From assembly GCA_963696325.1 (NCBI GenBank), contig CAVOJV010000020.1, positions 1 to 30,856 on the forward strand: 30,856 bases of DNA, written 5' to 3'. Position numbers and translations under genes: made by a program. The notes beneath the pieces were generated by a model that saw only the letters and a list, made by a program, of their open reading frames with translations, made no database searches and was not told the origin of the DNA. Origin of the DNA: an uncultured Gammaproteobacteria bacterium (lineage in GTDB: Bacteria; Pseudomonadota; Gammaproteobacteria; Competibacterales; Competibacteraceae). Below are positions 6,522-30,856 of this stretch, in pieces; position 1 is the stretch's first letter, and every line of letters begins with the position of its first letter.

Positions 6522-6541
6522 TCATTCCGACGAAAGTCGGA
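6522..6541. other. Perfect hairpin in the divergent intergenic region: 8-bp stem ATTCCGAC/GTCGGAAT with a GAAA tetraloop.
   Basis: The sequence 'attccgac gaaa gtcggaat' is read directly. It lies between the SagB-type gene start (6422, minus strand) and the CDF gene start (6644, plus strand). Confidence 0.35.
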
Positions 6542-6643
6542 ATCCAGCAACCCAACGAAAAACTGGATACCGGCTTGCGCTGGTATGATGAACGTGGGTG
6601 GTATTGCTTAAGTCATGCACCATTATTGGTTCTGGAGGCCATC

Positions 6644-7591: not shown

Positions 7592-7763
7592 TTCCAAGTT
7601 GCGAGCTGAAACTTACTTTCATTCATTTGTCGGGGTTGGTGCGGATGAGGTGAAGGAAATGGCGTGTGATCCAACGTGCGTTAGAGCTCCCATTTGGTGT
7701 TCCGCTGTGGTCCACACTTGTGCTGGCTTGTTTCAAAACCTCTGGGAAACGCTACCAACCCTG

Positions 7764-12745: not shown

Positions 12746-12949
12746 GATACCGTCCTCCCTTCATCATAGGGTACTTGGCTGATCGATCGCGGCGAGCAGC
12801 AGGATACCGCCAAATAACACGATGGCCAGCGAGCCGGCGATGGACAGCCCCTGATGAATCCGGTTCTCCCAGACAATGGCGGCCCCCGCCATCCACACGA
12901 TAGCCCTTCTCGACAGCACTGTGAATAGCGCCAGGGCCGATAGAGTGAG

Positions 12950-13171
12950 CGCCGCGCACGGCGCAACAGATAGAACCGTTGTTCATCTCGAAGATTTCCT
13001 CGTCAGCATCGAACACAACCTGGTGATCGATGCCGATTTCGCCGAAGTCGTTCTCGATGACGGCGCTGCGCTTGCCGGGCTGGCGAGCCAGGATGTGATT
13101 GAGCAAGGTGGTCTTGCCGGCTCCCAAAATCCAGTGAGTACGGTGACGGGTACCTTTTCGTGGCTGGCCAT
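12950..13171 (-). pseudogene. N-terminal remnant (~75 aa) of a COG0523 (CobW/ZigA/YeiR-type) zinc-chaperone GTPase. It is frameshifted and lacks its C-terminus.
   Basis: Frame 1 reads 'MASHEKVPVTVLTGF'. It continues in a second frame as 'LGAGKTTLLNHILARQPGKRSAVIENDFGEIGIDHQVVFDADEEIFEMNNGSICCAVRG' (P-loop plus CxCC motif). No recognisable GTPase sequence follows; the frame instead runs into sbcD. Confidence 0.7.
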
Positions 13172-13200
13172 GCCGCACCCCTTGGAGGTTTGCTATCGGG

Positions 13201-14139
13201 TTAATTCTTCGCCATCGCCGCCGCAAGGGCGGGCACATTGTGACGGAAAATGCCAATATAGGTATCACCCGGCTTGCCGGCGGGAGCCAGCGCATCCGAG
13301 TACAAGGTACCGCCGACCACGCCGCCGGCCTCGTCGGCGATGCGCTTGAGCAAACGCGGGTCGCTCATGTTCTCGACAAACAGCGCCCGCACGCCAGCCT
13401 GTTTGATCTGACGGACCAGGTTGGCAACGTCCTTGGCGGAAGGCTCGCTCTCGGTGCTCCAACCCACCGGGGCAAGGAACTGCACCCCATAGGCAGCGCC
13501 AAAATAGCCGAAGGCGTCATGCGAGGTAATCACCTTACGTTTAACGGCCGGGACGGCGGCGAGTTGCCCGCGCACCCACTGGTCGGTTTCCTTGAGTTGT
13601 GCCAGGTAGGCTTCGCCGCGCCGCTGATAAGCCTCGGCATGGGCCGGGTCGGCCTTGGCAAGGGCGGCGGTGATGTTGGCCACATAGCGCTGGCCGTTGG
13701 CCAGATCCTGCCAGGCATGGGGGTCTGTTATCAGGCCGTGGCCGTGCCCCTCATGCTTGTCTTGGCCGTGGCTGTCCTTGGCATGTTCTGCCTCTTCTTC
13801 CTTCAGCTGCCGAGGCGGGATGCCCTGGCTCGCTACCACTACCGTGCCTTTATAATTGGCGGCCTTGATCAGGCGGTCTATCCAGCCTTCGAAGCCCAGG
13901 CCATTCACCACCACCAGATTGGCGTTACCCACGGCCTTGGCATCCGCCGGGGTTGCTTCAAAAACGTGGGCGTCTCCATCGGGACCCACCAGGGTGGTAA
14001 CGGTCACATCCTCACCGCCGACATTCTTCACGAGATCCCCAAGAATGCTGAAGCTGGCCACGACCCGCAGTGGTTCCGCCCAAGCCGTGGGTACTATCAG
14101 AACGAGCGCCAAGGCCATGTGTTTCAGATAAAACCGCAT
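13201..14139 (-). CDS. znuA: Zinc ABC transporter substrate-binding protein ZnuA (TroA-like cluster 9) with a His-rich loop.
   Basis: It has a signal peptide. Conserved ZnuA segments are present, including 'LRVVASFSILGDLVKNVGG', 'VITSHDAFGYF' and the His-rich loop 'EHAKDSHGQDKHEGHGHG'. Confidence 0.85.
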   Translation of the reverse strand: MRFYLKHMALALVLIVPTAWAEPLRVVASFSILGDLVKNVGGEDVTVTTLVGPDGDAHVFEATPADAKAVGNANLVVVNGLGFEGWIDRLIKAANYKGTVVVASQGIPPRQLKEEEAEHAKDSHGQDKHEGHGHGLITDPHAWQDLANGQRYVANITAALAKADPAHAEAYQRRGEAYLAQLKETDQWVRGQLAAVPAVKRKVITSHDAFGYFGAAYGVQFLAPVGWSTESEPSAKDVANLVRQIKQAGVRALFVENMSDPRLLKRIADEAGGVVGGTLYSDALAPAGKPGDTYIGIFRHNVPALAAAMAKN

Positions 14140-14154
14140 AGGTAACTCCTTCGG

Positions 14155-15030
14155 TTAAGCTTGCAGATGCCTACCGCGCAGAAATCGGCCACGTAAGCCG
14201 TCTTGGCTACCCAGGACGATGGAAACCACATAAATGACCCCGGCGGTGAGAATGATGGCAGGCCCGGAAGGCAGATTGCCGTGGTAGGACAGCAACAAAC
14301 CCACGTAACCGGACAGTACCGCGATACCCGTCGCAACGGCGGCCATGGTCCATACCTGTTGCGTCCAGAAGCGGGCGGCGGCGGCGGGCAACATCATCAA
14401 ACCCACCGCCATCAGCGTGCCCAGGGCCTGGAAACCGGCCACCAGGTTGAGCACCAGCAGCATCAGAAACAGCAGGTGGTAGACCGCGCCATGGGCTTGC
14501 ACGGACCGCAAGAACTCCGGATCGAAACATTCCACGATCAAGGGTCGGTAAATCACCGCCAGGCTCAACAAGGTCACGCTGGCGATACTCGCTACCAGCA
14601 ACAGCGACACATCGTCTACCGCCAGAATGGTGCCGAACAGCACATGCAACAGGTCCACGTTGCTACCCCGGGTAGAGACTATCAACACACCCAGCGCCAG
14701 CGAGATCAGATAGAAAACGGCGAAACTGGCATCCTCACGTTGTTCCGTGAAGCGGGTCACCAGGCCCGCCAGCAAAGCCACCACCAGGCCGGCAACGAAA
14801 CCGCCAATACTCATGGCGGTTAGGGAAAAGCCCGCTACCAAAAACCCGATGGCCGCTCCCGGCAAAACCGCGTGGGACATGACGTCACCCACCAAGCTCA
14901 TGCGCCGCAGCACCAGCAATACCCCCACTGGGCCGCAGCCCAGCCCCAAGGCCAGGCAGGCCACCAGTGCCCGACGCATGAAACTGAATTCCAAAAAGGG
15001 GCGGATTAGCCAATCAAAGAGCACGTTCAT
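14155..15030 (-). CDS. znuB: Zinc ABC transporter permease ZnuB.
   Basis: It is a polytopic membrane protein of the ABC-3 family. Its start at MNVLFD overlaps the znuC stop (ATGA). Confidence 0.85.
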   Translation of the reverse strand: MNVLFDWLIRPFLEFSFMRRALVACLALGLGCGPVGVLLVLRRMSLVGDVMSHAVLPGAAIGFLVAGFSLTAMSIGGFVAGLVVALLAGLVTRFTEQREDASFAVFYLISLALGVLIVSTRGSNVDLLHVLFGTILAVDDVSLLLVASIASVTLLSLAVIYRPLIVECFDPEFLRSVQAHGAVYHLLFLMLLVLNLVAGFQALGTLMAVGLMMLPAAAARFWTQQVWTMAAVATGIAVLSGYVGLLLSYHGNLPSGPAIILTAGVIYVVSIVLGSQDGLRGRFLRGRHLQA

Positions 15031-15770
15031 GGTGGATTTACCGCACACAGCGGGGCTTGTTCATCCCAGGCTTCGGCCATGTGACGGGCGCGCAGCAGAT
15101 TCGTCGGGGTGAGCACCTGGGCGGTATCACCCCAGGCAATGCCGGATCGGGCCATCAGCAGAGTTTCGGGGAAATGGGCGCGCACCTGTTCCAGATCGTG
15201 CAGCACGGCAATCACCGTGCGTTGCTCGCCGTGCCAGCGCCGCACTACCTGTAGCAAATCCGTTGTCGTCCGGGCATCGATGGCGGTAAAGGGCTCATCC
15301 AGCAGGATCAGGGCGGCATCCTGCAATAGCATCCGCGCGAACAGCACGCGCTGAAACTGACCGGCTGAAAGACTGTTGATAAGCCGCCGAGGAAAACCAT
15401 CCAGTTCCACTGCCGCCAGCGCCTTGGCGGCCTTCGTCTTGAGGGCCCCGGTCACGGCGCCAAGTATACCGATGCGCCGCCAATGGCCCAGCATGACGAC
15501 ATCCATGACGGTGATGGGAAAGTTGCGATCGATCTGCGCCTGTTGGGGAAGATAAGCGATATCGCCACGGCTCGGAACGGCAGGTTTGATATGTCCCGTC
15601 GTAACCGGCAGCAGGCCCATGATGGCCTTGAGCAGAGTGCTCTTGCCAGCCCCATTGGGACCCACGATGGCTGTCAACGAACCGCTGTTGAATTGGCCGG
15701 ACAGATGATGTACCGCGGGATGGCGGTGATAACATACCGTCAGATCATCGAGTTGAAGCGCTGGAAGCAT
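15027..15770 (-). CDS. znuC: Zinc ABC transporter ATP-binding protein ZnuC.
   Basis: It carries Walker A 'GPNGAGKST', the signature 'LSAGQFQRV' and Walker B 'ILLDEPFTAID'. Confidence 0.85.
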   Translation of the reverse strand: MLPALQLDDLTVCYHRHPAVHHLSGQFNSGSLTAIVGPNGAGKSTLLKAIMGLLPVTTGHIKPAVPSRGDIAYLPQQAQIDRNFPITVMDVVMLGHWRRIGILGAVTGALKTKAAKALAAVELDGFPRRLINSLSAGQFQRVLFARMLLQDAALILLDEPFTAIDARTTTDLLQVVRRWHGEQRTVIAVLHDLEQVRAHFPETLLMARSGIAWGDTAQVLTPTNLLRARHMAEAWDEQAPLCAVNPP

Positions 15771-15914
15771 GACGTGATTAGTGCAGGGCCCAGGCCACGG
15801 CCAGCCACAGTCCCGCCACTAACGCAATCGCGCCATCAACCGTTGAACCACGCCTGTGGCCAGCAGGCTTAAGCCGGTTGGGTATCGTTTTTGCAAGGCT
15901 GCATTACTCGCTAA

Positions 15915-15955
15915 AATCATAACCATGATCAAAATGGTACTTCATAACATAACTC
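15915..15955. promoter_or_regulatory. AT-rich candidate Zur-operator/promoter region upstream of znuC, shared with the divergent large gene.
   Basis: The sequence 'aaaatcataaccatgatcaaaatggtacttcataacataactc' contains ATAAC/GTTAT-type half sites and a CCAT-N7-ATGG inverted repeat, inside an otherwise GC-rich genome. I could not find an exact Zur-box palindrome. Confidence 0.25.
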
Positions 15956-16035
15956 AGCGAAGTCAAAATTCACAAACAATGGCTGCCGGCAGCGCTGGCC
16001 AGGTGTGAAGTGGTATCCAGCAGTAAGCCGGTTTC

Positions 16036-16068
16036 TTCGCCGTCATCCTGCCATTCCTCCTGCCATTC
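16036..16068. repeat. Tandem direct repeat TCCTGCCATTCC, ~2.7 copies.
   Basis: Read directly: 'tcctgccattcc tcctgccattcc tcctgccag'. It lies in the znuC / large-gene intergenic region. Confidence 0.6.
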
Positions 16069-16160
16069 CTCCTGCCAGTCGTGCGCTGTCTGTTCACATT
16101 TGCGTTGATCTTCATGGCGTTTGGGTTTCCGTGCTACTGTAATTATGGCAATACCCGATT

Positions 16161-19100
16161 GTGGAGAGCTTCGCCATGCGCCTCGTGCAAGGACTGATTC
16201 TACTGCTGCTAACGATGACCGGCGTCCAGGCGTCTCCGCCGACCGCCATCCCCGAACCGCTGCGCCCGTGGGTGGACTGGGTACTGCATGGCCAGGAGGA
16301 AATGCGCTGTCCCCTGCTTTACAGCGATACCGTTGGCCGGCGTTGCGCTTGGCCCTCGGCGCTGCGCGTAGCGATCAATGACCAAGGCGGGCGCTTCGAG
16401 CAAACCTGGCATGGTGACGCTGCTACCTGGCTGCCGCTGCCCGGCGACCGCCGCCACTGGCCGCAGTCGGTGATGCTGGATGGTACGGCGGCGACGGTGC
16501 TTGAGCGCGATGGGCGGCCGGCGCTAAAAGCCGAGCCCGGCGAGCATCGTATCAGTGGTCAACTGGTTCGGAGCGCCGTGCCGGAGTCGTTCCGCGTGCC
16601 ACCTGAGACGGCTTTGTTGACGCTGCTGGTCGATGGCGTGGCGATCGCCAATCCGCGTATAGAGGCCGACGGCGCCGTCTGGCTGCGTGAGCGTGCCCCA
16701 CCGGCGACGGATATCCAGGATCACTTGGAGGCGCAGGTATTTCGCAGGATCACTGACGGGGTACCACTTATCCTCACTACCCGCCTCAGCCTGCGGGTCG
16801 CCGGTCAGGCGCGCGAACTGCAACTCGGGCCCATGCTGCCGGAGGGCTTTATCCCCTTGAGCCTGACCACCCCCCTGCCTGCCCGCCTTGAAACCGATGG
16901 CCGCCTGCGCCTGCAGGTCAAACCGGGCGACTGGATCGTCGAGGTCGGCGCCCGCCATGCCGATCCGGTCGAAGCCTTGCAGCGTCCAGCGGCGGGCGAG
17001 CCCTGGCCGGCACAGGAAGTATGGTCGTTCGAGGCGGCCAATGCGGTGCGGGTGGTAACGGTCGAAGGCGCGAGCGCTATCGATCCGGGTCAGACCAATC
17101 TCCCGGAGGAATGGCGTGCGCTGCCAGCCTATCTGATCACACCCGACACTGCCTTGAAATTCATCACCCGCCAGCGCGGCGCCAGCCCAGTACCCGATCA
17201 ACTCAGCCTCAATCGCAGCTTGTGGCTGGATTTCGACGGCGCGGTTACACCGTGCAAGATCGCCTGGAAGGGCGCGTGTCCACCGCCAACCGACTGGAAG
17301 CCGGTGCCGAACTGCAGCTCGGCCGGGTGGCGCTCGATGGCCAGGACCAGTTCATCACCCACCGCCCCGGCGACACCTCGGATGCGTGGAATTACGCCAG
17401 GGCCAGTTGCAACTGAGCGCCGACGGCCGCTTGCAGCCCCTCGCCCGCGGCGATCTACCGGCGGTCGGCTGGCGATTGCCGCCCGCTCAGGTGCGTACCA
17501 GCCTCAACCTGCCGCCCGGCTGGCGCTTGCTGGGAGTCGGTGGGGCCATGGGGTCAGCACCGCCTGGCTGTACCAATGGACCCTGCTTGACCTGTTTATC
17601 GTTCTCATCACCACCGTGGCTTTCGCTCGCCTGTGGAACTGGTGGTGGGGTCTGCTGGCGTTGGCCGGGCTTACCCTGGCGTACCACGAGCCCGATGCCC
17701 CCCGACTGCTCTGGCTCAAGTTGCTCGCCGCCATCGCGCTGCTGCGGGTGCTGCCGCCGGGACGCTTGCAGACGCTGGTCACTTGGTATCGCAAGCTGGC
17801 CGTAGCAGGCTTGGTACTGATGACGCTGGCCTTCGCCATCCAACAAGCGGGCGGCCTCTATCCTCAGCTCAGTTCACCGCCCACCTATGTGGATGCAGCC
17901 GCCTGCCGGCCGAGGATTTTCAGGCCGTGGCGCCGCCTGCCGCCGGACCCGCGCTGCTGAACGCCGGTCCATGGCGAAATCAGCACCCGCCCCGAACCGT
18001 CTGCGGCGCCGTCGCCACGGCTGCGCCTAGGCTATACGCCGGACGTCCAGGTACAGACACGGCCCCGGCCTGCCCCAGTGGCACTGGGGCCGGGCCGAGT
18101 TGCGCTGGACGGGTCCGGTACCTGCCGAGGCCCGACTTACGCTGTGGCTGCTGCCGCCCTGGGCCAGCCGCATGCTGGCCTTCCTCGGGGTTGGCCTGCT
18201 GCTGGCCCTGCTGGGGCGCGTGCTGGAGGTCCGCCTTCCCCGCCGCGCGCTGCCTTTACTGGTCCTGGGTTTGCTGATGCCCTCGCCCGACGCCCATGCC
18301 GATATCCCCTCCCCGGTACTGCTGGAGGACCTGCGCGCCCGCTTGACCGAGGCACCCGACTGCGCACCCCAGTGCGCCGCGCTTGCCAACCTGGCGATAC
18401 AGGCTACGGCGACCGAATTCCGACTCCAGCTCGATTTGCATGCGCAGGCCGACAGTGCGGTACCGTTATCGCTGGACAGCGGACGCTTCGTAGCGCACCG
18501 CATCGGTTTGGACGGCAAGGCGGCGGCGCTCTACCGCGCCGCGGATGGCGGCCTGTGGTTGCGGCTGCCCGCCGGGTTGCACCGTGTTGAAATCGACGGC
18601 CCACTGCCGTCCGATCTGCTGACCCTGCAATTGCCATTGCCGATGGCGCCGGGCCGGGTCACTCTCGATCTCGACGGCTGGAGCGCCGACGGCGTATTCG
18701 ACGGGGTAGCGAGCGGCGCCCAGATCGAACTCAACCGCCAGCGCCGCGAAACCGCCATCACCCTGGAGCCAGGCGTATTGCCAGTGTTCGTCAGCGTCGA
18801 GCGGGAACTGGTGCTGGGCATCGACTGGCGGGTGCATACCCAGGTCAGACGCTTGAGCCAGGCCGATTCCGCCGCGGTGCTGGCGATTTCCCTCTTACCG
18901 GGTGAGCGCCTCACTACCGCCGGCATTCAGGCCGCGACGGGCGCGCGCAACTCAACCTGGCACCGGATCAGGATGCACTGGAATGGACCTCCACCCTGGA
19001 GCGTTCCGATCGCCTTCAACTGACCGCCGCCACCACCCTACTTCATCGAGATCTGGCGGTTGCGCGCCGGCCGATCTGGCATATCGAGGCCGCCGGCATC

Positions 19101-20122
19101 CCGGTGCTCCACTACCATGACAGCGCCGGCGAGTGGACCCCGGAATGGCGCCCTTGGCCGGGAGAACTGCTGACCCTGGTGATCAGCCGTCCGGAGGGAG
19201 TGGCGGGTAAGGTCGTTACCATCGACCAGGCCATTCTGCGTCTGCAACCCGGTGAACGCGTAAGCAATGCCGAACTGGAACTGACGGTGCGCGCCAGCCG
19301 CGGTCTGGACCATTTATTCACCTTGCCGGCGGGTGCGGAACTGACCGACGTGCTGATTAACGACCGCAGCCAGCCCTTGCAGCTCAGGGATCGCGTCCTG
19401 ACCGTGCCGCTGACGCCCGGCGGGCAGCGGATTGCGTTCACTGGCGTGATCCGCGGAGTATGACTATGTACTACGCACCCCGCGGTGGATCTCGGCACCG
19501 ACAGCGTCAATGCGAATATCATTCTGACCGTGCCTCCCGACCGTTGGACCCTGTTTGCCGGTGGCCCCACCCTGGGACCGGCGGTGCTGTTCTGGGGAAT
19601 GCTGGTCGTGGTCCTGCTGGCGGCTGTTGCCTTGGGGCGATATGCGGGTACGCCTTTACGGAGCTGGCAATGGCTGTTGCTGGGGATTGGCTTGAGTTTC
19701 AGACCGACCTGCTTTCCGCCGCAATGGTGGTGGGATGGCTGTTGCTGCTCGGCCGCCGCACCAGGTTGCCGGAAAATATCGATAATCGCATTTTCAATCT
19801 CTTGCAAGTGTTGCTGGCGCTGCTGACCTTGGTGGCGCTGGCGGCCCTCGCTGAAGCGATCCAGCAGGGCCTGCTGGGGCTGCCCGATATGCAGGTCGTG
19901 GGCAACGGTTCCAGCGCCAATGAGCTGCGCTGGTACCAGGACCGTTCGTCGGGGTTGCTGCCGCAAGCCTGGACGGTATCGGTGCCCATGCTGGTTTACC
20001 GGCTGTTGATGCTGGCCTGGGCGTTGTGGCTGGCTTTTGCCCTGTTACGCTGGCTGGCTTGGGGTTGGAACTGTTTCAGCAGTGGCGGGCTATGGCGGCG
20101 CCTGCGATTGCGCAAGGCTTAA
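16161..20122 (+). pseudogene. Very large (~1300 aa) secreted/membrane protein gene of unrecognised family. It is broken by at least six frameshifts and one in-frame TGA at 19461, and may be two adjacent genes (second part ~19485-20122).
   Basis: It begins with a signal peptide 'MRLVQGLILLLLTMTGVQASP'. Clearly protein-like segments alternate between frames (ORFs 16161.., 17021.., 17386.., 18100.., 19104.., 19485.., 19460..). Hydrophobic helices occur at ~17560-17880, ~18150-18290 and ~19560-20100. The frame changes are near 17240, 17400, 17550, 17900-18100, 18930 and 19700. Confidence 0.6.
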
Positions 20123-20135
20123 GGAGTAATAAACC

Positions 20136-20554
20136 ATGCTCTCGCAAACCACACTGACCATCCTCACGCAGGGCCGGGGCACCTATCCAGAGTGACTGAC
20201 CGTGTCCAGGCTGTGGTGCGCGCGACAGGCCAGAAAACCGGCCTGGCCCATGCGTTCATCCATCACACCAGCGCCTCACTGATACTTTGCGAAAACGCCG
20301 ATCCCACGGTGCGCCATGACCTCGAAACCTTCATGGTCCGCCTGGTCCCTGACGGCGTCGCCTGGCTCGAACACAATGACGAGGGTCCGGACGACATGCC
20401 TGCCCATATCCGCACGGTGTTGACCCAGAGCAGTCTGACGATTCCGGTGACAGAGGGGCGCTGTGCCTTGGGAACCTGGCAGGGAATATATCTTTGGGAA
20501 CACCGTCACGCCGGTCACAGTCGCAGGCTAACCGTCACCGTGCAGGGGGAATGA
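20136..20554 (+). CDS. yjbQ: YjbQ/UPF0047-family protein (secondary thiamine-phosphate synthase-like) with a frameshift near 20190. The ATG at 20136 with its AAGGAG Shine-Dalgarno sequence is in a different frame from the rest (ORF 20192..20554).
   Basis: 'FIHHTSASLILCENADPTVRHDLETFMVRLVPDG…EHNDEGPDDMPAHIRTVLTQSSLTIPVTEGRCALGTWQGIYLWEHR' is collinear with YjbQ. The family-typical N-terminus 'MLSQTTLTILTQGRGTYP' is encoded from ATG 20136 in another frame. Confidence 0.7.
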
Positions 20555-20615
20555 GATTTTCCAGGGGCCGGCAGGCTTGCGCAGCGGAAAAAATTACCGC
20601 GCAAGCCATGCGGAT

Positions 20616-21131
20616 TTAGGGAAATGCCGGTATGGTTGGCTCGGTGCCTTCCACATGCGCCTCGGGGTGATGCTGTCTAACCAGATCGGTGACTTCATCC
20701 ACCCGATCCTTGGCGACATCGATGAGCATCAGCAACTGCCCTTCCTCAAGGGCGTCATGAAACTTGTCCAACTGGGTATTGGGTATCGACACGCCGATCA
20801 TGCTCGCTACCCAGGCCCCTAGACCCGCCCCCAACAGGCTGGTGGCAAGGATGGCGCCACCACCCAGAATCAATCCCGCCGGCGGGAAGGTCACGGCGGC
20901 GATACCCGCCAGCAGACCGGTAGCGCCGCCTACGGTCAAACCGCGTTCCAGGGCGGGAACAAAATCGCTCTCTTCAAACAGTCCAGCTTCTGGCAAATTG
21001 GCCTTTAACAACGGCGCATGATCTTTAGCAACGATATGTATATGGCGTTCATCAATTCTCGCTAGCAGCAATTCATTGACGATTTGCGTGGCACTTTCTA
21101 CCGTAGGGACCAAAAAATAGAGTCGTTTCAT
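20616..21131 (-). CDS. Small membrane protein with a glycine-zipper helix (DUF1269-like), hypothetical.
   Basis: It is intact over 171 aa. The central motif 'GGATGLLAGIAAVTFPPAGLILGGGAILATSLLGAGLGAWVASMIG' is a glycine zipper, flanked by acidic regions. The upstream region is AT-rich. Confidence 0.65.
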   Translation of the reverse strand: MKRLYFLVPTVESATQIVNELLLARIDERHIHIVAKDHAPLLKANLPEAGLFEESDFVPALERGLTVGGATGLLAGIAAVTFPPAGLILGGGAILATSLLGAGLGAWVASMIGVSIPNTQLDKFHDALEEGQLLMLIDVAKDRVDEVTDLVRQHHPEAHVEGTEPTIPAFP

Positions 21132-21158
21132 TATGACTTGCCCTTATCTTCGATGATG

Positions 21159-21180
21159 AAATTTTATCAATATAAAATTT
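21159..21180. promoter_or_regulatory. Perfect palindrome AAATTTTAT-caat-ATAAAATTT in the divergent promoter region. It is a candidate operator.
   Basis: Read directly at 21159-21180. It lies between the minus-strand membrane-protein gene start (21131) and the EamA gene start (21262). Confidence 0.4.
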
Positions 21181-21261
21181 AGACCCTAATGCTAAAAATT
21201 AAATCCTGACCAATCCAAAAGACCCAGCCTCTACTCAACATCCAGCACTCTGGAAGCTACC

Positions 21262-22164
21262 ATGCGCGCCCTTGCCAAAACCCTGCACCCTTCTCCTTAC
21301 GTGCTGCTCATCCTGACTACTCTGTTCTGGTCCGGTAATTTCGTCCTTGGCCGCGCGGTACACCTGGCTTTTCCACCCATCGCCCTGTCCTTCTGGCGTT
21401 GGGTGGTGGCCATGATGATCCTGCTGCCCTTGGCCTGGTCACGGCTGCGCCCGCACTGGCCGTTACTGCGGGATCACTGGAAGATCCTAACACTGTTAAG
21501 CATTCTTGGGGTCGTCAACTTCAACACCTTCGTCTACACCGGTCTGCAGTCGACCACGGCTACCAACGCGGTGCTCCTGGTCTCCACCACGCCGGTCATC
21601 ATCGTGGCGCTGTCTTTTGCCTTGCTGCGCCTCACCGTGACTGGCCGGCAAGCCCTGGGAATAGCCATTTCCCTGCTGGGGGTACTGGTGATCGTTACCA
21701 AGGGCGACATGCAAGCACTGCTGGCCCAGCGGATGAACAGTGGCGATCTCTGGATCATGGCGGCAGTGTTAAGTTGGGCATTATACTCGGTCTGTTTGAA
21801 GTGGCGCCCCGAGGGGTTGCATCCCCTGGCCTTCCTGGCCGCCACCATGATCATTGGGGTGGTTTTGCTCATCCCCCTCTACTGCTGGGATCTGTCCCGC
21901 GGCGCCACCTGGGAACCCAATGCCGTGACGCTGGGCAGCATCGCTTATGTGGCCATTTTCCCGTCCGTCCTCGCCTATATTTTCTGGAACCGCGCAGTGG
22001 CGGAACTGGGCGCCAACCGCACCGGCCAGTTCATGCACCTCATGCCGGCCTTCGGCGCCATTCTCGCCATGCTGTTCCTGGGCGAACGGCTGTATCCCTT
22101 CCACCTAGTCGGCATTGGCCTGATCGCCGTGGGGATTTATCTGACGACGGGACGCCGATGTTAA
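21262..22164 (+). CDS. DMT-superfamily (EamA/RhaT-like) transporter.
   Basis: It has ten predicted transmembrane segments and two EamA-like halves ('LLILTTLFWSGNFVLGR…', 'AVLSWALYSVCLKW…'). It is intact over 300 aa. Confidence 0.8.
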   Translation: MRALAKTLHPSPYVLLILTTLFWSGNFVLGRAVHLAFPPIALSFWRWVVAMMILLPLAWSRLRPHWPLLRDHWKILTLLSILGVVNFNTFVYTGLQSTTATNAVLLVSTTPVIIVALSFALLRLTVTGRQALGIAISLLGVLVIVTKGDMQALLAQRMNSGDLWIMAAVLSWALYSVCLKWRPEGLHPLAFLAATMIIGVVLLIPLYCWDLSRGATWEPNAVTLGSIAYVAIFPSVLAYIFWNRAVAELGANRTGQFMHLMPAFGAILAMLFLGERLYPFHLVGIGLIAVGIYLTTGRRC

Positions 22165-22740
22165 GTGTAACGGCCCGACCACATAAGGCGCGGGCGGAGG
22201 CCAGACCGGCCCGGGTGGATGCGGTGATCAGATCCTGTGCCAACCGCACACGCGGCAAGGCTTCGGCCAGGACCAGCCAAAATACCTGCACTGGTTGCTC
22301 GCCCAAGCCCTGGCGCCGAAGGCCCAACGCGAGACCATGCTGACGGTGGGTGCGGTAACCCTGCTGGTGCGAGCGACTCGCCACCCCGTTGCAGGTTGAC
22401 AAATACCTGACCTTGGCGTTGGAAGACGGTTACCGGACCGGGCAAAGCCGGTCGGCGCGGATACCCTCGAGAGCCTCCTGGCGATTGACCTGGACGCTCT
22501 GGAGGCGCGGCTGATGCGCAACGGCTACAATGGTGAAGGTGCGCTCGGAAATCCGCAACGCTAAACTTCGCGAAAGTCGCTCCTTCCTGAGTGGGCAACT
22601 GCCACCGGGCCGAACGCAGGCGCTTCACCAGGAGCTGCTTGCGGCCAGCGTGCCGCGGTAGCCGTTCTCACCGCGAGGGGTTCCTGGCCGATGTCCTCTG
22701 TCCCCTACCGATAGCCAGCCCCGCAGATGGGAGAAAACGC

Positions 22741-25700
22741 TTGACCGCCAACAACCAAGCTCAGCCTGCCTCAGCCAGTGCACCCGCCGGTGCGGCCGGT
22801 CCCGGCTGCCGCTTTCCCATCGTCGGCATCGGCGCGTCGGCCGGGGGGCTGGCGGCCTTCGAGGCCTTCTTCTCCGGCATGCCCGCCGACACCGATCCGG
22901 GCATGGCCTTTGTCCTGGTGCAGCACCTGGCCCCGGACCACAAGAGCATCCTCACCGACCTCATCCGGCGCTACACCCGCATGCAGGTCTTCGAGGTCGA
23001 GGACGGGATGGCGGTGCAGCCCAACTGCGCCTACATCATCCCGCCCAACCGCGACATGGCCTTTCTGAACGGCACGCTCCAACTGATGGAACCGTCCGCG
23101 CCCCGCGGCCAGCGCCTGCCGATCGACTTCTTCTTCCGCTCCCTGGCCCAGGACCAGCGCGAGCGGGCCATCTGCATCGTGCTTTCGGGCACCGGCAGCG
23201 ACGGCACCCTGGGCGTGCGGGCCATCAAGGGCGAGGGCGGCATGGTCATGGCCCAGAACCCCGCCTCCACCGAGTACGACGGCATGCCGCGCAGCGCCAT
23301 CGCCACCGGCCTGGTGGACTACGAGCTGCCGCCGGCCGAGATGCCCGCCCAGCTCATCGCCTACGTGGCCCACGCCTTCGGCAAGCCGCCCCGGCCCGCC
23401 ACCGTCCCGGCGCCCAAGGCCGAGAACGCGCTGAAGAAGATCTTCATCCTGCTGCGCGCCCAGACCGGCCACGACTTTTCCCAGTACAAGCCGAGCACCA
23501 TCCACCGCCGCATCGAACGGCGCATGGCCGTCCACCAGATCGAAACGATGGACGGGTACGTCAAGTATCTGCAGCAGACGCCGGCGGAGGTGGAAGCGCT
23601 CTTTCGCGACCTGTTGATCGGCGTGACCAATTTCTTCCGCGATCCGGAGGCCTTCAAGGCGCTCGAGGAACAGGTCATCCCCAAGCTCTTTGCCGGCAAG
23701 CCCGCGGGCGCCGTGATCCGCGTCTGGTCGCCGGGCTGCTCCACCGGCGAGGAGGCCTATTCCATCGCCATCCTGCTCGCCGAGCGCCATGGAGGCGCTG
23801 AAGCAGAGTTACAAGGTGCAGGTCTTCGCCACCGACATTGACAGCCAGGCGATTGCCACGGCCCGCGCCGGCCTCTATCCGGCCAGCATCGCCGCCGACA
23901 TCTCGCCGGAGCGGCTGGCGCGCTTTTTCACGGCCGAGCCCGACGGCAGCGCCTACCGCATCCACAAGAGCATCCGCGACATGCTGGTCTTTTCCGAGCA
24001 GAATGTGATCAAAGACCCGCCCTTCTCCAAACTCGACCTGATCAGTTGCCGCAACCTCCTGATCTACATGGGCGGCGACTTGCAGAAGAAGCTCATTCCC
24101 CTGTTCCACTACGCGCTGAACCCGGGCGGTTTTCTCTTCCTGGGCACCTCGGAGACCGTGGGCGAGTTCGGCGATCTGTTTGCCGCGCTGGACCGCAAGT
24201 CGAAGCTGTATCAGCGCAAGGAAGATTTTCACAGCGCGCAGCGCGCGGCCCTGGGCCGGTTTCTGCCGCCCATGACGGCGATCGATGCGGCGCTCCCGCG
24301 GGCCGCCGGAAAGACGGCCTGCCCCGGGAAACTGCCGCTGCGCGAGCTGACCGAACAGGCGCTGCTGCAACAGGTCGCCCCGGCCGGCGCGCTGGTCAAC
24401 GGCCAGGGCGACATCCTCTATCTCCACGGCCGCACCGGGATGTACCTGGAACCGGCCCCGGGCGAGGCCGGCATCAACAACATCCTGAAGATGGCCCGCG
24501 AAGGGTTGCGGCGCGAACTGACCACGGCCCTGCACAAAGCCGCGGGGACAAAGGAGATCGTGCGCTGCCCGGGCCTGCGCGTCAAAACCAACGGCGACTT
24601 CACCACGGTCAACCTGACCATCCGCCCGGTGGCGGCAGGCCCCGCCGCGACGCCCGAGGCGCCTCTGTACCTGGTCATCCTGGAGGAAGCGCCGCCGCTC
24701 GATCCCGAACAGGCGCAGCAGGCCGCCCCGCATGCCGTCGGCAGGAGCGGACGGCCCCGACACGGACGCCGACGCGCGCATCGCGGCGCTCAAGCAGGAA
24801 CTGCGGGCCAAGGAGGAATACCTCCAGACCGCCAACGAGGAACTGGAGACCTCCAACGAAGAGCTCAAGTCCTCGAACGAGGAGATGCAGTCGGTCAACG
24901 AGGAATTGCAGTCCACCAACGAGGAGCTGGAGACCTCCAAGGAGGAACTGCAGTCGGTCAACGAGGAACTGGCCACGGTCAACGCCGAACTGCAGACCAA
25001 GGTGGCCGATCTGTCGCGGGCCAACAACGACATGAACAACCTGCTGGCCGGCACCGGCATCGGCACCGTCTTCGTGGATCATCAACTGCGCATCCTGCGC
25101 TTCACCCCCGCCGCCACCCGGATCATCAACCTGATCCTGAGCGACGTGGGGCGGCCCGTGGGCCACATCGTCTCCAACCTGGTGGGCTACGACCGCCTGG
25201 TGGCGGACGTGCAGGCCGTGCTGGACACCCTGGTTCCCAAAGAGGTGGAAGTGCAGACCACGGAGGGCAAGTGGTACACGATGCGCATCCTGCCCTACCG
25301 CACGCTCGACAACGTGATCGAGGGCGCGGTGATCACCTTTGTGGACATCACGGAGATGAAGCAGACGCAGGAGGCGCTGCGGAAAGCCAATGAGCTGCTC
25401 CGCCTGGCCGTGGTGGTGCGCGATGCGCACGATGCCATCACCGTGCAGGACCTGGATGGCCGCATCCTGGCCTGGAACCCGGGAGCGGTGAGGATGTACG
25501 GCTGGAGCGAAGCCGAGGCGCTGGCGATGAACGTCCGCGACCGGATCCCGGAGGGGCTGCGCGAGGAAGCGTTGGCCAAGCTGCATCAGCTTAGCCGGGC
25601 TGAGATTCTGGAGCCGTATCGCACCCAGCGGATCACCAAGGACGGTGCGGTCGTGGAGGTCTCGATGATCTCCACCGCTTTGGTGAATGAGGCCGGGCAG

Positions 25701-25778
25701 ATGTATGCGATTGCGACCACGGAACGGGCGAGCAGAATCAGGCAAAGACAGGCCGAACGGATGGAGGCCGCACGATGA
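22741..25778 (+). pseudogene. CheB methylesterase - CheR methyltransferase - coiled-coil - PAS_10 fusion protein gene (~1010 aa) with frameshifts near 23790 and 24725. A TTG start is proposed at 22741.
   Basis: The CheB domain is 'FPIVGIGASAGGLAAFEAFF…VLSGTGSDGTLGVRAIKGEGGMVMAQNP' (ORF 22591..). The CheR domain is 'FFRDPEAFKALEE…VWSPGCSTGEEAYSIAILLAE' and continues as '…VQVFATDIDSQAI…LIYMGGDLQKKL' in the 23789 frame. The coiled coil is 'EELETSNEELKSSNEEMQSVNEELQ…'. The PAS_10 domain is 'GTGIGTVFVDHQLRILRFTPAATRII' in the 24732 frame, which stops at 25778. Confidence 0.7.
24835..24990 (+). repeat. Periodic nucleotide repeat (~21-33 nt units) encoding the (S/T)xNEEL(E/Q) coiled-coil region of the CheB-CheR fusion.
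   Basis: Repeated aacgaggaactg/gagctg…tcggtcaacgaggaa units are read directly. Confidence 0.5.
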
Positions 25779-25797
25779 CCAGCAAGGATGAACGCCG

Positions 25798-27900
25798 ATG
25801 ACCGCAGCAAGACGCTGCGCCGAACTGCGCCGGCAGGCCGAAGAGATCGCCCGGGAAAAAGCGGCCCAGTCGCCGGAAAACCTCGAGGCCCTGTCGCCCG
25901 AGGAAACGCGGCAGACGCTCCACGAACTGCGGGTGCATCAGATCGAGCTGGAGATGCAGAACGAGGAGCTGCGCCGGGCGCAGGCGGAACTGGACGCCGC
26001 GCGGGCGCGCTATTTCGACCTCTACGACCTGGCGCCGGTGGGCTATTGCACCCTCAGCGAGCAGGGGCTGATCCTGGAGGCCAACCTCACCGCCGCCACC
26101 CTGCTGGGCGTGGCCCGGGGCGCGCTGGTCAAGCAGCCGATCTCCCGGTTCATCCTCAAGGAGGACCAGGACATCTACTACCTGCACCGCAAACAGCTCT
26201 TTGAGACCGGTGAGCCGCAGGCGTGCGAACTGCGGATGGTGAAAAAGGACGGCACGCGCATTCTGGGCGCATCTGGCGGCCACCGCCGCGCAGGACGCCG
26301 ACGGCGCGCCCGTGTGCCGCGTCGTGCTGAGCGACATCACCGAGACGCAAGCAGGCGGAGGACGGCGCTGCGGGAGAGCGAGGAACGGCACCGGACGCTC
26401 CTCGAGACGGCCATGGACGGCTTCTGGCTGGTGGACCGGGACGGGCGTCTGCTGGAAGTCAATGAGACCTATTGTCGGATGAGCGGCTACAGCGCGCAGG
26501 AATTGTTGGCCATGGGGCATTCACGACCTGCGAGTTCGCGAAACGGCCGACGGCGTAGCCGCTCGCATCCAGAAAATCATGGCGGAGGGCGAGGATCGTT
26601 TCGAGTCCCGGCACCGCGGCAAGGACGGGAGCATCAGTGACGTCGAAGTCAGCGTCCAGTACCACCCGTCGAAGGCGGGCGATTGGTGGCATTTCTGCGG
26701 GACATCACCGAGCGCAAGCGGGCCGAGGCGGAGCGGGAGAAGCTGCAGGCGCAGTTGAGCCAGGCCCAGAAGATGGAATCGGTGGGCCGGCTGGCCGGCG
26801 GCGTGGCCCACGACTTCAACAACATGCTGGCGGTGATCCTCGGCCACGCGGAGCTGGCCCTGGAGCAGGTGGACCCGGCGCAGCCGCTCCATGCCGACCT
26901 GCAGGAGATCCGCAAGGCCGCCGAGCGCTCCGCCGACCTCACCCGGCAACTGCTGGCCTTTGCCCGCAAGCAGACCGTCGCCCCCAAGGTGCTCGACCTG
27001 AACGAGACCGTGGCAGGGCATGCTCAAGATGCTGCGGCGGCTGATCGGCGAGGACATCGATCTCGCCTGGCTGCCGGAGGCGGACCTGTGGCCGGTCAAG
27101 ATGGACCCCTCCCAGATCGACCAGATCCTGGCCAACCTGTGCGTCAACGCCCGGGACGCCATCGCCGGCGTCGGGCAAGATCACCATCGAGACGGGCAAC
27201 ATGCGCCTTCGACGAGGCCTACTGCGCCGCATCACGCGGGTTCGTCCCCGGCGAGTACGTGCTGCTGGCCGTGAGCGACGACGGCTGCGGCATGGACAAG
27301 GAGACGCTGGCCCACCTCTTCGAGCCGTTCTTCACCACCAAGGACGTCGGCAAGGGCACCGGCCTCGGGCTGGCCACGGTCTACGGCATCGTCAAGCAGA
27401 ACGACGGCTTCATCAACGTCTACAGCGAGCCGGGCCAGGGAACGACGTTCACGATCTACCTGCCCCGGCATGCGGGCAAGGCCGGGCAGGCGCGGCCGGA
27501 AGGCGCGGCGGCGCCGGCCGCGCGCGGCCACGAGACCATCCTGCTGGTGGAGGACGAGCCGGCCATCCTGAACACTGACCACGACGATGCTCGAACGGCA
27601 GGGCTACACCGTGCTGGCCGCCAGCACGCCGGGCGAGGCCATCCGCCTGGCCCGGGAGCACGCCGGCGAGATCCACCTGCTGATGACCGACGTGGTCATG
27701 CCCGAGATGAACGGCCGGGACCTGGCCAAGAACCTGCTGTCCCTCTATCCGGACCTCAAGCGCCTGTTCATGTCCGGCTACACGGCCGACGTCATCGCCC
27801 ACCACGGCGTGCTGGACCGGGCGTGCACTTCATCCAGAAGCCGTTCTCCAAAGGGCTGGCCGCCAAGGTGCGCGAGGTGCTGGATCATGGAAAAGATTAA
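25798..27900 (+). pseudogene. PAS-PAS-HisKA-HATPase_c-REC hybrid sensor histidine kinase gene (~700 aa) with about eight frameshifts.
   Basis: The PAS N-terminus is 'LHELRVHQIELEMQNEELRRAQAELDAARARYFDLYDLAPVGY'. The second PAS is 'TLLETAMDGFWLVDRDGRLLEVNETYCRMSGYS'. HisKA is 'ESVGRLAGGVAHDFNNMLAVILGHAELAL'. HATPase is '[20 protein letters not shown]' and 'GTGLGLATVYGIVKQNDGFINVYSEPGQGTTFTIYLP'. REC is 'ILLVEDEPAIL…LLMTDVVMPEMNGRDLAKNL…LFMSGYT'. These segments alternate among the 25798, 26683, 27020 and 27587 frames. Confidence 0.7.
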
Positions 27901-28078
27901 GAATCACCATTCGGCTAACAAGACGCTGCACCGGGCGCAGGCGGAACTGAATGCCGCGCGGGCGGGGCTGGAGGCGGTTGCGGGGCAGGATGCTGATGGC
28001 CTTCGCGTGTGCCGCGCTAACGCAAGGCCAAGGAGGAACAGCTGTGTCAGGCCGATGACGAATGGCGAAAACCCTTGA
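27887..28078 (+). pseudogene. Possible truncated N-terminal remnant of another PAS sensor gene.
   Basis: 'MEKIKNHHSANKTLHRAQAELNAARAGLEAV' echoes the 'LRRAQAELDAARARY' N-terminal motif of the kinase at 25798. It is cut off after ~60 aa where it meets the LpxH-like remnant. Confidence 0.2.
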
Positions 28079-28500
28079 TCGTCGAGACACACTCCAGCAC
28101 GGACAGATGCGCATCGATCAGATCGCGTGATCCTGCCCGTAAATAGCCAAGACCCTCGACAAGCTCGCGCAGCTTGGCAGGAATGGCGCGCAAGGTGATG
28201 GAGAATAACCCGAACGGCGCTCCAGCGAATTGCCGCAGGGCATCGTCATGATTGCCGGGTATATAAATAATGCAGCGTACCTTGCTTGGCTTTCGCCAGC
28301 AGCTTCTGGATCACCGCATTGTGCGCTGGGGGCCAGTGCAGAGCCGGTACTCATACTCCATAAATCGATAATGTCCCCCACCAGGTAAAGGAATTTCGAA
28401 TCGGTGGCGTCGAGGAACTCCAAAAGCGCCTCGGCCTTGCAGTCGGACATGCCAAGGTGCACATCGGATATCCAGATGGACCTGAAACGAGCGTTTTTCA
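28045..28500 (-). pseudogene. LpxH-like calcineurin-type metallophosphoesterase remnant. It is frameshifted, and its C-terminal half is degenerate.
   Basis: 'MKNARFRSIWISDVHLGMSDCKAEALLEFLDATDSKFLYLVGDIIDLW' is in ORF 28118..28507. It continues in other frames as 'PPAHNAVIQKLLAKAKQGT' and '…IYIPGNHDDALRQFAGAPFG…'. The distal HGDxxD part expected for LpxH is missing. Confidence 0.55.
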
Positions 28501-28654
28501 TAAGCAATCACCGGGCAAGCCAGGGAAGCCAACGGCGCCCGAGGGTAGCCGGCTCCTGCTACATTTTTGGGCAGTCGAAATGACAGTTCGGGGACACGTA
28601 CGGCGCTAGATTTCCACCGCCCACTGTGTCGCCGTACTGTCACAGAACCCGCAT

Positions 28655-28900
28655 TTGCCTGAAATACACCTCGCGCAATTTGATCGGGAAGGCTGCCGTA
28701 CGCGGAGCCTGTACACTTTGCTGCAATTGATATCGGCTTTGGCTTTCTGTATTACGGCATGGGCAGGGCATTGCGCCCCAAGCACGTCCTGGTCATCGGC
28801 TCTGGTTTCGGCTTCAGGCCTCGCCCTCGGGTTGAAGGACAAGGGCAAGGGCAGGCGCACCTCGTCGATCCCTCGTTCTCGGTTCTCGAGGACGGCCCTT
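28655..28900 (+). pseudogene. Degenerate ORF alternating between two frames. It is possibly a class I SAM-dependent methyltransferase-like remnant.
   Basis: Frame c reads 'AAIDIGFGFLYYGMGRALRPKHVLVIGSGFGF' and 'VHLVDPSFSVLEDG'. The ORF-track frame reads 'GLALGLKDKGKGR' and 'ALKTIGGTGYWNDPDRL'. Joined together they read like a Gly-rich SAM-binding fold. The identification is weak. Confidence 0.2.
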
Positions 28901-29154
28901 AAAACCATCGGCGGCACGGGTTATTGGAATGATCCGGATCGGCTCCCAGGTGGACCTGACGTACCCTGGCGTGAGAACCTACATACTCGGGTACGGGCCG
29001 GCAATCAGGCACGGGCCGGCGAGACTATCCTGATCGACTGAGTGCTTCCCCGCGGGAACCCGGCGGCTCCTATTCGCGGCAGTTTCAGTATACTGAACCC
29101 AGGGCGGTCGCCTTCCGCCGCCCACGCCCTGGACGCCACTTTAGGAGGACCGCC

Positions 29155-29698
29155 ATGCTCGTCACTTGTGAACATTCCTGCTTGCTGGTCATCGATATTC
29201 AAGAACGCCTGATGGCAGCCGTTCAGGATAGCCAAACGGTTATTGCCAACAGCGCCTGGTTGCTGAAAATCGCGAGGCAACTGGAGGTGCCTATTCTGGC
29301 CTCCGAGCAATATCCCCAAGGTCTGGGACATACGGCGCCGGAACTACGAGGCCTGGTCCCGGCGGCAAGCATCATGGAAAAAACCTGCTTCTCCTGCGCC
29401 GCCGACCCGGCCTGCCTGCAGCGCATCAACGCCTGCCAGCGCGAACAGGTGATCCTGCTCAGGTGCGGAGGCGCATGTCGTGTTGCAGACCGCCCTTGGC
29501 TTGCTGGCGGTAGGCAAGGATGTCTATGTGGTGGCTGATTGCATATCATCGCGCCGGCCACGGGACATGGAATTGGCGGTCGAGCGCATGCGCACCGAGG
29601 GGGTGCGGGTGGTGAGCCGGGAGATGGTGGTGTTCGAATGGTTGCAGCAGGCCGGCACCGACCGGTTCCGCCAGATCAGCCACGAGTTCTTGCGCTAG
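29155..29698 (+). CDS. Isochorismatase-family hydrolase (YcaC-like) with one frameshift near 29465.
   Basis: 'LLVIDIQERLMAAV…EVPILASEQYPQGLGHTAPEL…EKTCFSCAADP…QREQVIL' is in ORF 29155... It continues as 'EAHVVLQTALGLLAVGKDVYVVADCISSRRPRDMELAVERMRTEGVRVVSREMVVFEWLQ' in ORF 29480... Confidence 0.7.
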
Positions 29699-29763
29699 TC
29701 GCGCCGGCACAACGCCCATTCTCCTGCCCGAGCTTTCGGGAGGGGAGCGGGCAGGCAGTCAGC

Positions 29764-30697
29764 TCACTCGAACAATCCCGCCACCGACAGGTAGCGTTCG
29801 CCGGTATCGTATGAGAACGTGAGAATCCTGCTGCCTTTCGGAAGTTCGGGCAGTTTTTTCGCGACCGCAGCCAACGAAGCTCCTGATGAAATGCCGACAA
29901 AAATTCCCTCTTCCCGGGCGGAGCGTGTTGCGTACTCAAAACGCCTCTTCCTTGGTAACCTGAATGACACCATCGAGAACGCTTTGGTGTAGATTCGCCG
30001 GGATAAACCGGCGCCGATTCCCTGAATCGGATGAAGGCCCGGGGCGCCTCCGCTAATCACCGGCGAGAGCGCAGGTTCGACTGCAAACACCTTCAACTTC
30101 GGAAATCGTTCCTTCAGAACTTCACCTACGCCCGTGATGTGTCCACCTGTTCCAACGCCTGTGATGAGCACGTCAAAACCGTTCGGAAAGTCGGCGAGTA
30201 TCTCTTTCGCAGTTGTTTCCTTGTGTACTGCGATGTTTGCCTCGTTCTCGAACTGCTGCGGCATCCAGGAATTGGGTATTTCGGCGGCGAGTTCCTGAGC
30301 CCTGGTAATCGCCCCGGACATACCCTTTTCCCGCGGGGTCAATACCAGTTCCGCGCCCAGCGCCGCCAGGTAGCGCCGGCGTTCCAGGGGACATGGATTC
30401 GGGCATGGTCAGAATCAGCCGGTAGCCCTTGGCGGCCGCCACCATGGCCAGCGCAATGCCGGTATTGCCCGAGGTGGGCTCAATGATAACGGTATCCTTG
30501 TGAATCCGGCCCTTGTGCTCCGCATCTTCAATCATTGCCAGCCCGATCCTGTCCTTGATGCTGCCGCCGGGATTGGCGCGTTCGAGCTTCATCCACACCT
30601 CAACTCGACGATTCTCAAACAGCCGGTTGATTTTGACATGGGGTGTATTGCCAATCGTTTCCAGGATATTGCGCGCTTTCATTGTCTCTTCATCCAC
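29764..30697 (-). pseudogene. cysK: Cysteine synthase (CysK/CysM, PLP-dependent) with at least three frameshifts: one near 30385 and a compensating pair at ~29998 and ~29938.
   Basis: The N-terminus '[17 protein letters not shown]…[28 protein letters not shown]…[20 protein letters not shown]' is in ORF 30173..30697. The C-terminus '[18 protein letters not shown]…[19 protein letters not shown]…GIGAG' and '…[29 protein letters not shown]…[12 protein letters not shown]' is in ORF 29764..30342. The internal 22 aa '[23 protein letters not shown]' is readable only in a third frame between ggg>gg and ttt>tttt homopolymer changes. Confidence 0.75.
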
Positions 30698-30856
30698 CCT
30701 TCATAAACATAAGGTTCACGGGAACGCCCTTTTTATCACTTTACGGCAAGCAATATAAAACTCGTAAGAATTTTAGATTTTATTTAAATAACCAATACCA
30801 CTAAACATTGTTAGCCATACTTTTATAAAGATAGTTTAAGATATTGATAGTATGCG

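Follow-up and report, generated by a model that had tools for sequence, protein, structure and literature searches.

This report concerns a contig of an uncultured gammaproteobacterium (CAVOJV010000020.1 of assembly GCA_963696325.1), 30,856 nucleotides (nt) in length and analysed whole, hereafter the window, in which reading frames are broken repeatedly in some genes and not at all in others. Its G+C content is about 0.62, and its EamA transporter, with 72-74% amino-acid identity to proteins of metagenome-assembled genomes (MAGs) of Ca. Contendobacter and Competibacter, places it in the Competibacteraceae. About 35 frame-breaking insertions and deletions (indels) were found in total. Stretches at approximately 30-1266, 17241-20190, and 22591-30697 carry one- and two-base indels at about 3 per kb; the stretches 1337-17240 and 20200-22164 are accurate. 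Thirty-one of these indels were verified against intact references: fourteen in a gene for a large membrane protein, designated G1, one in a UPF0047 gene, two and ten in adjacent signalling genes designated 5a and 5b, one in an isochorismatase-family gene, and three in cysK. At least two more lie in a metallophosphoesterase remnant (28100-28500) and another two in a transposase fragment (30-1266).

An earlier note, made from the letters of the sequence, had placed a sharp boundary at 16161, between an intact first half and a second half riddled with frameshifts. The patchy integrity it described is confirmed, and the clustering of indels is a real property of the deposited sequence. An event-free gap from about 873 to 17241, at least 16.4 kb long among 35 events, has a chance probability of about 1e-10, and the genes at 1337-17240 are read in single frames. 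At the rate of 3.2 per kb found in the broken segments, 34 events would be expected in 6446-17240, where none (or one, see below) is seen, and six in 20200-22164, where none is found (P of none = 0.002). The geometry, however, differs from the one proposed. The first break comes at 17241, after 1.08 kb of clean G1 sequence; the left end at 30-1266 is broken as well, leaving a clean block rather than an intact half; and the second half is not uniformly broken, with 20200-22164, which holds a DUF1269-like gene and the EamA gene, free of coding indels. All nine frame-change sites that the note listed were recovered within a few bases. At 16161-20122, where the note may have counted several genes, there is a single gene for 1324 amino acids (aa), and a frame change near 25780 turns out to be the normal boundary between two genes. 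A Viterbi frame caller based on codon usage and trained on first-half genes assigned one frame per gene up to 17.2 kb, followed by frequent same-strand switches, and also placed a switch at about 873, within the first 1.3 kb; this caller is too noisy in the low-GC right end for the counting of events.

Intact references came from short-read-type contigs of relatives. Contig L082 (GCA_964353485.1), a 17.5-kb MAG contig, follows the window collinearly over 6446-20132 with 96.0% nucleotide identity, and has the gene order CDF-sbcCD-znuABC-G1 with G1 intact at 1324 aa. Two JGI contigs, L091 and L092, were found with a search pattern that crossed two indel sites of the window and left the bases there optional, and both carry the two extra bases. 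L091 covers window 7894-20126 and L092 covers 17445-22308, each 96% identical to the window and 99% to L082, with the order G1-UPF0047-DUF1269-EamA. Over G1 these three contigs differ from the window by about 4%, making them relatives and not the same strain. Eighty Competibacteraceae species representatives, scanned by way of EamA, share only that gene, sometimes with its neighbours, and provide no reference for the broken genes. At the 3' end of L082, the last 990 nt or so past the G1 stop (13979-14968) match neither the window nor L092, which is 99% identical to L082 up to that stop and then continues collinear with the window; this end of L082 represents either a strain difference or a misjoin at a contig end.

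G1 (16161-20122, plus strand) encodes a membrane protein of unassigned family and is one gene with 14 frame-breaking indels, 12 of them deletions. Single bases are missing at 17241, 17384, 17548, 17896, 17959, 17994, 18932, 19070, 19435, 19474, and 19482, and two bases at 19038; one base is gained at 18059 and two at 19697. Further length differences comprise in-frame losses of 3 nt at 17849 and 9 nt at 17884, and one extra base at 20119, just ahead of the stop. The indels are identical whether judged against L082 or against L092. Public gene calls split the window's G1 into pieces of 594, 283, 119, and 150 aa, which cluster with the intact 1324-aa protein P0242 of L082. Within one species-level group the number of breaks differs from assembly to assembly, with none in L082, about one (near residue 572) in a 38,209-bp contig, and 14 in the window; the differing loads point to assembly quality, not biology. 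The copy in the 38,209-bp contig loses frame at the proline-rich linker (window 17849-17896, about residue 572 of 1324) whose length varies among relatives (P0122/P0240), a local hot spot either of length variation or of consensus trouble.

Downstream of G1, the UPF0047 (YjbQ-like) gene (20136-20554, plus strand) starts with an ATG at 20136 behind AAGGAG and has one frameshift, a gain of two bases at about 20186. The stitched protein of 139 aa covers positions 1-117 of the 117-position profile, and the corresponding 139-aa open reading frame (ORF) of L092 is intact. The next two genes, DUF1269-like (20616-21131, minus strand) and EamA (21262-22164, plus strand), are intact, each with a full-length match in a single frame; against L092, this clean patch shows intergenic indels only (20556, 20588, 22244).

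The two signalling genes follow. Gene 5a (22591-25778, plus strand) encodes a CheB-CheR-PAS_10-PAS fusion and carries one-base insertions at 23789 and 24740. Its CheR profile is divided over two frames, with positions 2-59 in the ORF at 22591-23838 and 60-190 in the ORF at 23717-25390, and homologues switch frame at 23787-23792 and at about 24740. Gene 5b (25798-27900, plus strand; stop codon 27898-27900) is separate from 5a and encodes a PAS-PAS-HisKA-HATPase-receiver protein. It has ten frame-breaking indels, namely one-base insertions at 26258, 26344, 26362, 26514, 27019, 27171, 27203, and 27573 and one-base deletions at 26665 and 27818, plus an in-frame gain of 18 nt and an in-frame loss of 3 nt. 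A reading of 22591-28078 as one giant gene was ruled out, as relatives carry two genes with a 4-nt overlap (L083). That 8.7-kb JGI contig, which covers only a module shared with 5a and the start of 5b, encodes an intact 1145-aa CheB/CheR protein and then a separate 718-aa protein with PAS, histidine kinase and response regulator parts (PAS-HK-RR). For 5b and the genes beyond it the reference is L085 (JGI, 4.4 kb), which covers window 25822-27951 and 28926-30826 at 88-90% identity and in which PAS-HK-RR is intact for 685 aa up to where the contig stops, the isochorismatase has 181 aa, and CysK has 305 aa. Within 5a, the DNA of a coiled-coil region with NEEL-type heptads (24806-24999) is internally repetitive. 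The 120 best 5a homologues do not exceed 721 aa, and the longest end near 24806-24999. The label "partial" on many of them suggests a region in which short-read assemblies break.

The isochorismatase-family gene (29155-29698, plus strand) has one extra base at 29460 and an in-frame loss of 3 nt at 29479, with its domain split into positions 1-118 and 120-174; the orthologue in L085 is intact at 181 aa. The cysK gene (29764-30697, minus strand) has one-base insertions at 29936 and 30387 and a one-base deletion at 30005, and its PALP profile is split between two minus-strand ORFs (positions 2-93 and 86-292). Stitched, CysK is a full-length protein of 305 aa that aligns end to end with 305-aa orthologues. 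Its residues 1-139 are identical to those of P0250, straight across the shift at 30387, with about 70% identity thereafter. The 23 residues between the compensating shifts at 29936 and 30005 show conservation in one frame only, and it is one in which the broken gene would not be translated. Short-read-type contigs of six samples have 0-2 mismatches per 100 nt to the window around 29460 and 30387, and the extra base occurs in the window alone. The cysK-isochorismatase pair occurs also in five further contigs (JGI, ENA, Logan).

None of the 31 verified indels occurs in L082, L091, L092, L083, or L085-L090 wherever these contigs cover them. The indels are private to the window contig, and the relatives' genes are intact. 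The comparison with orthologous loci that the earlier note had proposed thus finds the affected genes whole and in the same order in relatives, whose nucleotide identity to the window is about 96% on the G1 side and 88-100% at the right end. This observation is common to two explanations and does not discriminate between them. One is real and very recent pseudogenisation, with strain-specific relaxed selection in G1, the UPF0047 gene, the two signalling genes, the isochorismatase gene, and cysK, and the intactness of orthologues along with the confinement of breaks to particular stretches accords with it. So does the evidence of real relics that this lineage does lose genes (a cobW remnant, the truncated metallophosphoesterase in an insert, an IS66 fragment). 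The other is that the breaks were introduced in assembly.

Selection tests separate the two. Ratios of nonsynonymous to synonymous substitution rates (dN/dS) were computed by the Nei-Gojobori method on pairwise alignments, with the frame taken from the intact reference. Calculated on the readable segments, as the earlier note had also suggested, they are 0.09-0.27 for broken genes in corrected frame (G1 0.23, 5a 0.27, 5b 0.23, isochorismatase 0.09, cysK 0.22) and 0.02-0.24 for intact ones (CDF 0.17, sbcC 0.24, sbcD 0.15, znuA 0.19, znuB 0.02, znuC 0.22). Differences by codon position (1:2:3) number 40:21:85 in G1 and 35:36:91 in sbcC. Not one nonsense codon occurs among the 3311 codons of the corrected frames, against 31 frame-breaking indels. 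Substitution density relative to the relatives is flat across the edges between clean and broken stretches, at about 30-45 per kb. No larger deletions were found inside the affected genes, in which the other length differences are in-frame changes of 3, 9, and 18 nt only; the metallophosphoesterase remnant is an exception. The broken genes retain the signature of continued purifying selection. Relaxed selection is rejected because 14 frameshifts in a 4-kb gene would need a neutral phase, yet no neutral substitutions are detectable. Some 31 indels unaccompanied by neutral substitutions are also far from the indel-to-substitution ratios generally known for bacterial pseudogenes. Conservation of the 29936-30005 stretch of cysK only in the frame that is not translated tells against pseudogenisation as well, as do two further observations set out below, that most insertions extend no run, unlike slippage products, and that the private indels of a shared module differ from one independent assembly to the next. 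We regard genuine gene decay as very unlikely. Of the two options that the earlier note had left open, a decaying region or a low-quality assembly segment, the first is contradicted by the dN/dS, nonsense, and substitution data, and the second fits every point that could be tested.

The module in question (window 22802-26364, plus strand) has counterparts in L001 (10096-13641, 95.5% nucleotide identity), L084 (10115-13706, 93.4%), and L083 (2253-6161, 91.6%), all in different genomic surroundings. L001 and L084 are ENA assemblies with names of the form contig_N. In a four-way alignment, private single-base insertions number four in the window, nine in L001, seven in L084, and none in the JGI contig L083, whose module frame is open, and their positions are all different. 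The genes neighbouring the module are fragmented too in L001; in L084 the module is broken and the flanking housekeeping genes are intact. L001, full of private insertions, was ruled out as a reference for the module, and frames were judged by many homologues together with L083. Eleven of the 20 private insertions adjoin a polymorphic column, where 22% would be expected to do so (binomial p = 0.0013), and three extend a run. Nine read as two alleles in tandem, although where an indel is placed in the alignment is in part arbitrary. One of the nine, at 23789, gives CGCCATGG in the window where other copies have CGCATGG, CGCCTGG, or CGCCAGG. The pattern looks like that of a consensus built from mixed, diverged templates, to judge from the aligned copies.

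The module itself, 3.5 kb in length, comprises CheB-CheR-PAS_10-PAS and extends through the first PAS domain of the next gene; homology begins at the CheB domain and stops at a DITERK motif behind a PAS domain. The outputs 3' of it differ, being HK-RR in the window and a sigma-54 activator in L084. Its third-position G+C is 0.88-0.94 in the window, compared with about 0.74 elsewhere, and the L084 copy has 66% GC between flanks of 48-51%. Protein searches list module homologues, 80-97% identical, in MAGs whose labels span many phyla. The module looks like a recently spread signalling cassette that recombines at domain borders, and L084 is possibly a chimeric assembly.

A module found at 93-95.5% identity in unrelated contexts, one of them flanked by DNA of 48-51% GC, is also what might be seen if the window were a chimeric contig, in which two or more organisms, one well and one poorly covered, had been joined, for instance through the CheB-CheR-PAS module. 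In the same direction, synteny around EamA is not kept in the 80 species representatives, and cysK is a mosaic relative to L085 (29821-30300). The isochorismatase gene and the first 400 nt or so of cysK are 98-100% identical to L085, the 3' 500 nt or so of cysK show 26-36 mismatches per 100 nt, and identity runs from at least 99% to about 70% and back to at least 99%, as either recombination or consensus mixing would produce. Against a chimera, short-read-type contigs of relatives bridge 7894-20126 (L091), 17445-22308 (L092), and 25822-30826 (L085) in the same order; G1 and CheB/CheR pieces are each listed on a contig of 38,209 bp, from the same sources; the first break, at 17241, falls within a gene that stays collinear with the relatives before and after it; and divergence from the relatives is uniform across the boundary. 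A chimeric origin of the frame breaks is, on this evidence, most improbable. Large-scale misjoining is unlikely. Local mixing of the consensus is possible, because 22.3-25.8 kb is unbridged in context and because of the cysK mosaic.

The insertions depart from replication slippage, a process that would yield run extensions. Among 13 one-base insertions in the right part of the window, ten add a base unlike both neighbours and only three extend a run, where the expectation is 80% (P = 2e-5). Because those ten extend no run, the insertions are not products of slippage. These counts also leave unsupported the earlier note's association of frame changes with homopolymers. Runs of at least 4 or at least 5 nt are not denser in the broken stretches than elsewhere, and in the clean block runs of at least 5 nt occur about 1.8 times per kb with no error. 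No shared sequence or methylation motif is apparent at the 31 indel contexts, nor was a distinctive composition of the broken stretches found. The kind of indel changes along the contig, with deletions making up 12 of 16 at 17.2-20.2 kb and insertions 13 of 16 at 22.6-30.7 kb (Fisher p = 0.004).

Two biological readings would keep the indels as real. In one, the genes are expressed through the shifts by recoding, that is, by programmed ribosomal frameshifting or transcriptional slippage. The sole hint of this is the nearness of compensating sets (26258/26344/26362; 29936/30005). Some 31 sites share no motif and include no slippery heptamers, the sites are absent from orthologues at 96-100% identity, and three one-base deletions that together restore the frame are trivial where deletions dominate; we would give recoding next to no chance. 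In the other, the indels are real in one subpopulation, the result of a very recent burst of non-slippage indels in kilobase-scale stretches that struck seven genes before substitutions could accumulate. This too we consider highly improbable. If true, it would mean a localised indel-generating process, such as error-prone repair tracts; we know of no description of a process of this kind in bacteria.

The frame breaks are, then, very probably consensus errors of the assembly and not biological. The likeliest process is that an error-prone long-read consensus, from a presumed platform, was left uncorrected in places. At 17.2-20.2 kb, where deletions dominate, the local depth of deletion-prone reads would have been too low; Nanopore consensus needs about 40-fold depth for near-finished quality (PMC9262707). 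At 22.6-30.7 kb, where insertions dominate, reads of several diverged copies would have been piled together, in a stretch that includes the module present at 91-97% identity in many community members. In a diploid genome, the collapsing of alleles with nearby variants has been seen to produce indel errors and truncated ORFs (PMC8445201). The sharp edges may mark steps in depth, the reach of short-read polishing, or the extent of strain sharing. That the patchiness has its specific cause in such conditions (low depth, mixed templates, incomplete polishing) we hold with rather less assurance, as somewhat the better bet.

Several points weigh against the consensus-error reading. The indels lack the homopolymer signature that is classical for long-read or 454 errors. 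Nothing in the sequence accounts for the switch from deletions to insertions, and the sharp edges of the clean blocks are likewise not accounted for. The G1 deletions mostly do not adjoin polymorphic sites, so mixed templates do not cover them. The distance of about 4% between the window and the G1 references may leave room for a very recent strain-specific event. Two of the damaged features may be genuinely defunct, the metallophosphoesterase a real remnant brought in by an insertion and the IS66 transposase fragment a real pseudogene. The consensus-error reading draws on sequence comparison, and we rate it as highly probable. The genes of the second half, cysK included, should be read as intact, except the metallophosphoesterase remnant and possibly the insertion sequence fragment.

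The metallophosphoesterase remnant, designated G6 (28100-28500, minus strand), corresponds to the N-terminal 130 aa or so of a calcineurin-like/LpxH-like phosphoesterase, is truncated and spread over three frames, and matches positions 4-80 of the 191-position Metallophos profile. Pfam searches with the three separate ORF pieces at 28121-28920 gave no match, and G6 was recognised only once stitched. The surrounding 27951-28926 (about 975 nt) is absent from L085 and L088, which have about 146 nt in its place. At the opposite end of the contig, three frames are needed to read the IS66-family transposase fragment (30-1266, minus strand), with switches near 873 and near 317. Its homologues, 537-544 aa long, match 1254-823, 871-320, and 314-30 in one frame each, and P0396 has the DDE_Tnp_IS66 domain. 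The left contig end cuts the gene at about residue 409 of about 540. Truncated or out-of-frame copies are common among the database homologues of this transposase, and assembly breaks typically leave a repeat at the end of a contig.

The clean block (1337-17240) encodes a phasin, a Zn-ribbon protein, an SPFH/GYF protein, a SagB-like nitroreductase, a CDF protein, SbcC (1245 aa), SbcD, a cobW relic, ZnuA, ZnuB, ZnuC, and the first part of G1, with no frame-breaking indel. The phasin, Zn-ribbon, SPFH/GYF, nitroreductase/SagB-like, CDF, sbcC, sbcD, and znuABC genes are single uninterrupted frames with full coverage of their Pfam domains. Compared base by base with L082, the portion 6446-17240 shows nothing but a 6-nt indel that keeps the frame of the CDF gene, some indels between genes, and a one-nucleotide difference at 15037; L091 agrees on the clean state of the block. 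The difference at 15037, the sole one in the block that could affect a frame, is an extra T relative to L082 in the znuB/znuC overlap (ZnuC 247 vs 251 aa, ZnuB 297 vs 291 aa). Between sbcD and znuA, at 12944-13127 on the minus strand, only a CobW/HypB/UreG fragment remains (profile positions 9-70 of 180); L082 aligns across it and has only a 42-aa called ORF there. The fragment looks like an older, real gene remnant, from its shared presence in the two sequences, and the "intact" half is to that extent not wholly pristine. Most of the nitroreductase/SagB-like gene (4749-6422, intact in the window) is missing from L082, with window 4921-5853 plus 5918-6446 set against L082 1-285. On these alignments, relatives of about 96% identity truly differ in the presence of this gene.

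Taken at face value, the contig would describe a Competibacteraceae population that had lost cysK, an isochorismatase, the membrane protein of 1324 aa, and a large pair of sensor kinases of chemotaxis type. The finding of consensus error averts false calls of pseudogenes, of auxotrophy, and of an "island of decay", and the contig needs repair or polishing ahead of metabolic inference. Frameshift filters based on homopolymers would miss damage of this type, because the errors are patchy, are not tied to homopolymers, and are in part allele merges in a shared module. As a very probable artefact of sequence production, the pattern is of low biological interest.

Among known systems, the pseudogene-rich genomes in decay, such as those of Mycobacterium leprae and recent host-restricted symbionts, resemble the window in having several neighbouring genes interrupted whose orthologues in relatives are intact. 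Unlike them, the window has no nonsense mutations, no rise in dN/dS, no excess of substitutions, and no larger deletions, and its frameshifts are far more numerous than its divergence permits. Collapsed-allele indels of the kind reported for a diploid genome (PMC8445201) differ in their templates, which there are homologous chromosomes and here would be the genomes or strains of a metagenome, and they do not cover the G1 deletions. They resemble the window's private insertions in that these adjoin variable sites, show both alleles in tandem, and fall in a module common to many co-resident genomes at 91-97% identity. The third comparison is with the gene-fragmenting indels of long-read (Nanopore/PacBio) assemblies, which are measured by the IDEEL length-ratio test and corrected by Kastor-type tools (PMC9262707, PMC12007338). 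Unlike those, the window's indels are not concentrated in homopolymers, are patchy within 31 kb, and are biased to deletions in one stretch and to insertions in another, and the platform is a conjecture. Like them, they are single-base changes that split genes into several ORFs where relatives and short-read assemblies have intact copies, their load differs between assemblies of the same organism, and two other long-read metagenome contigs, L001 and L084, show damage of the same kind.

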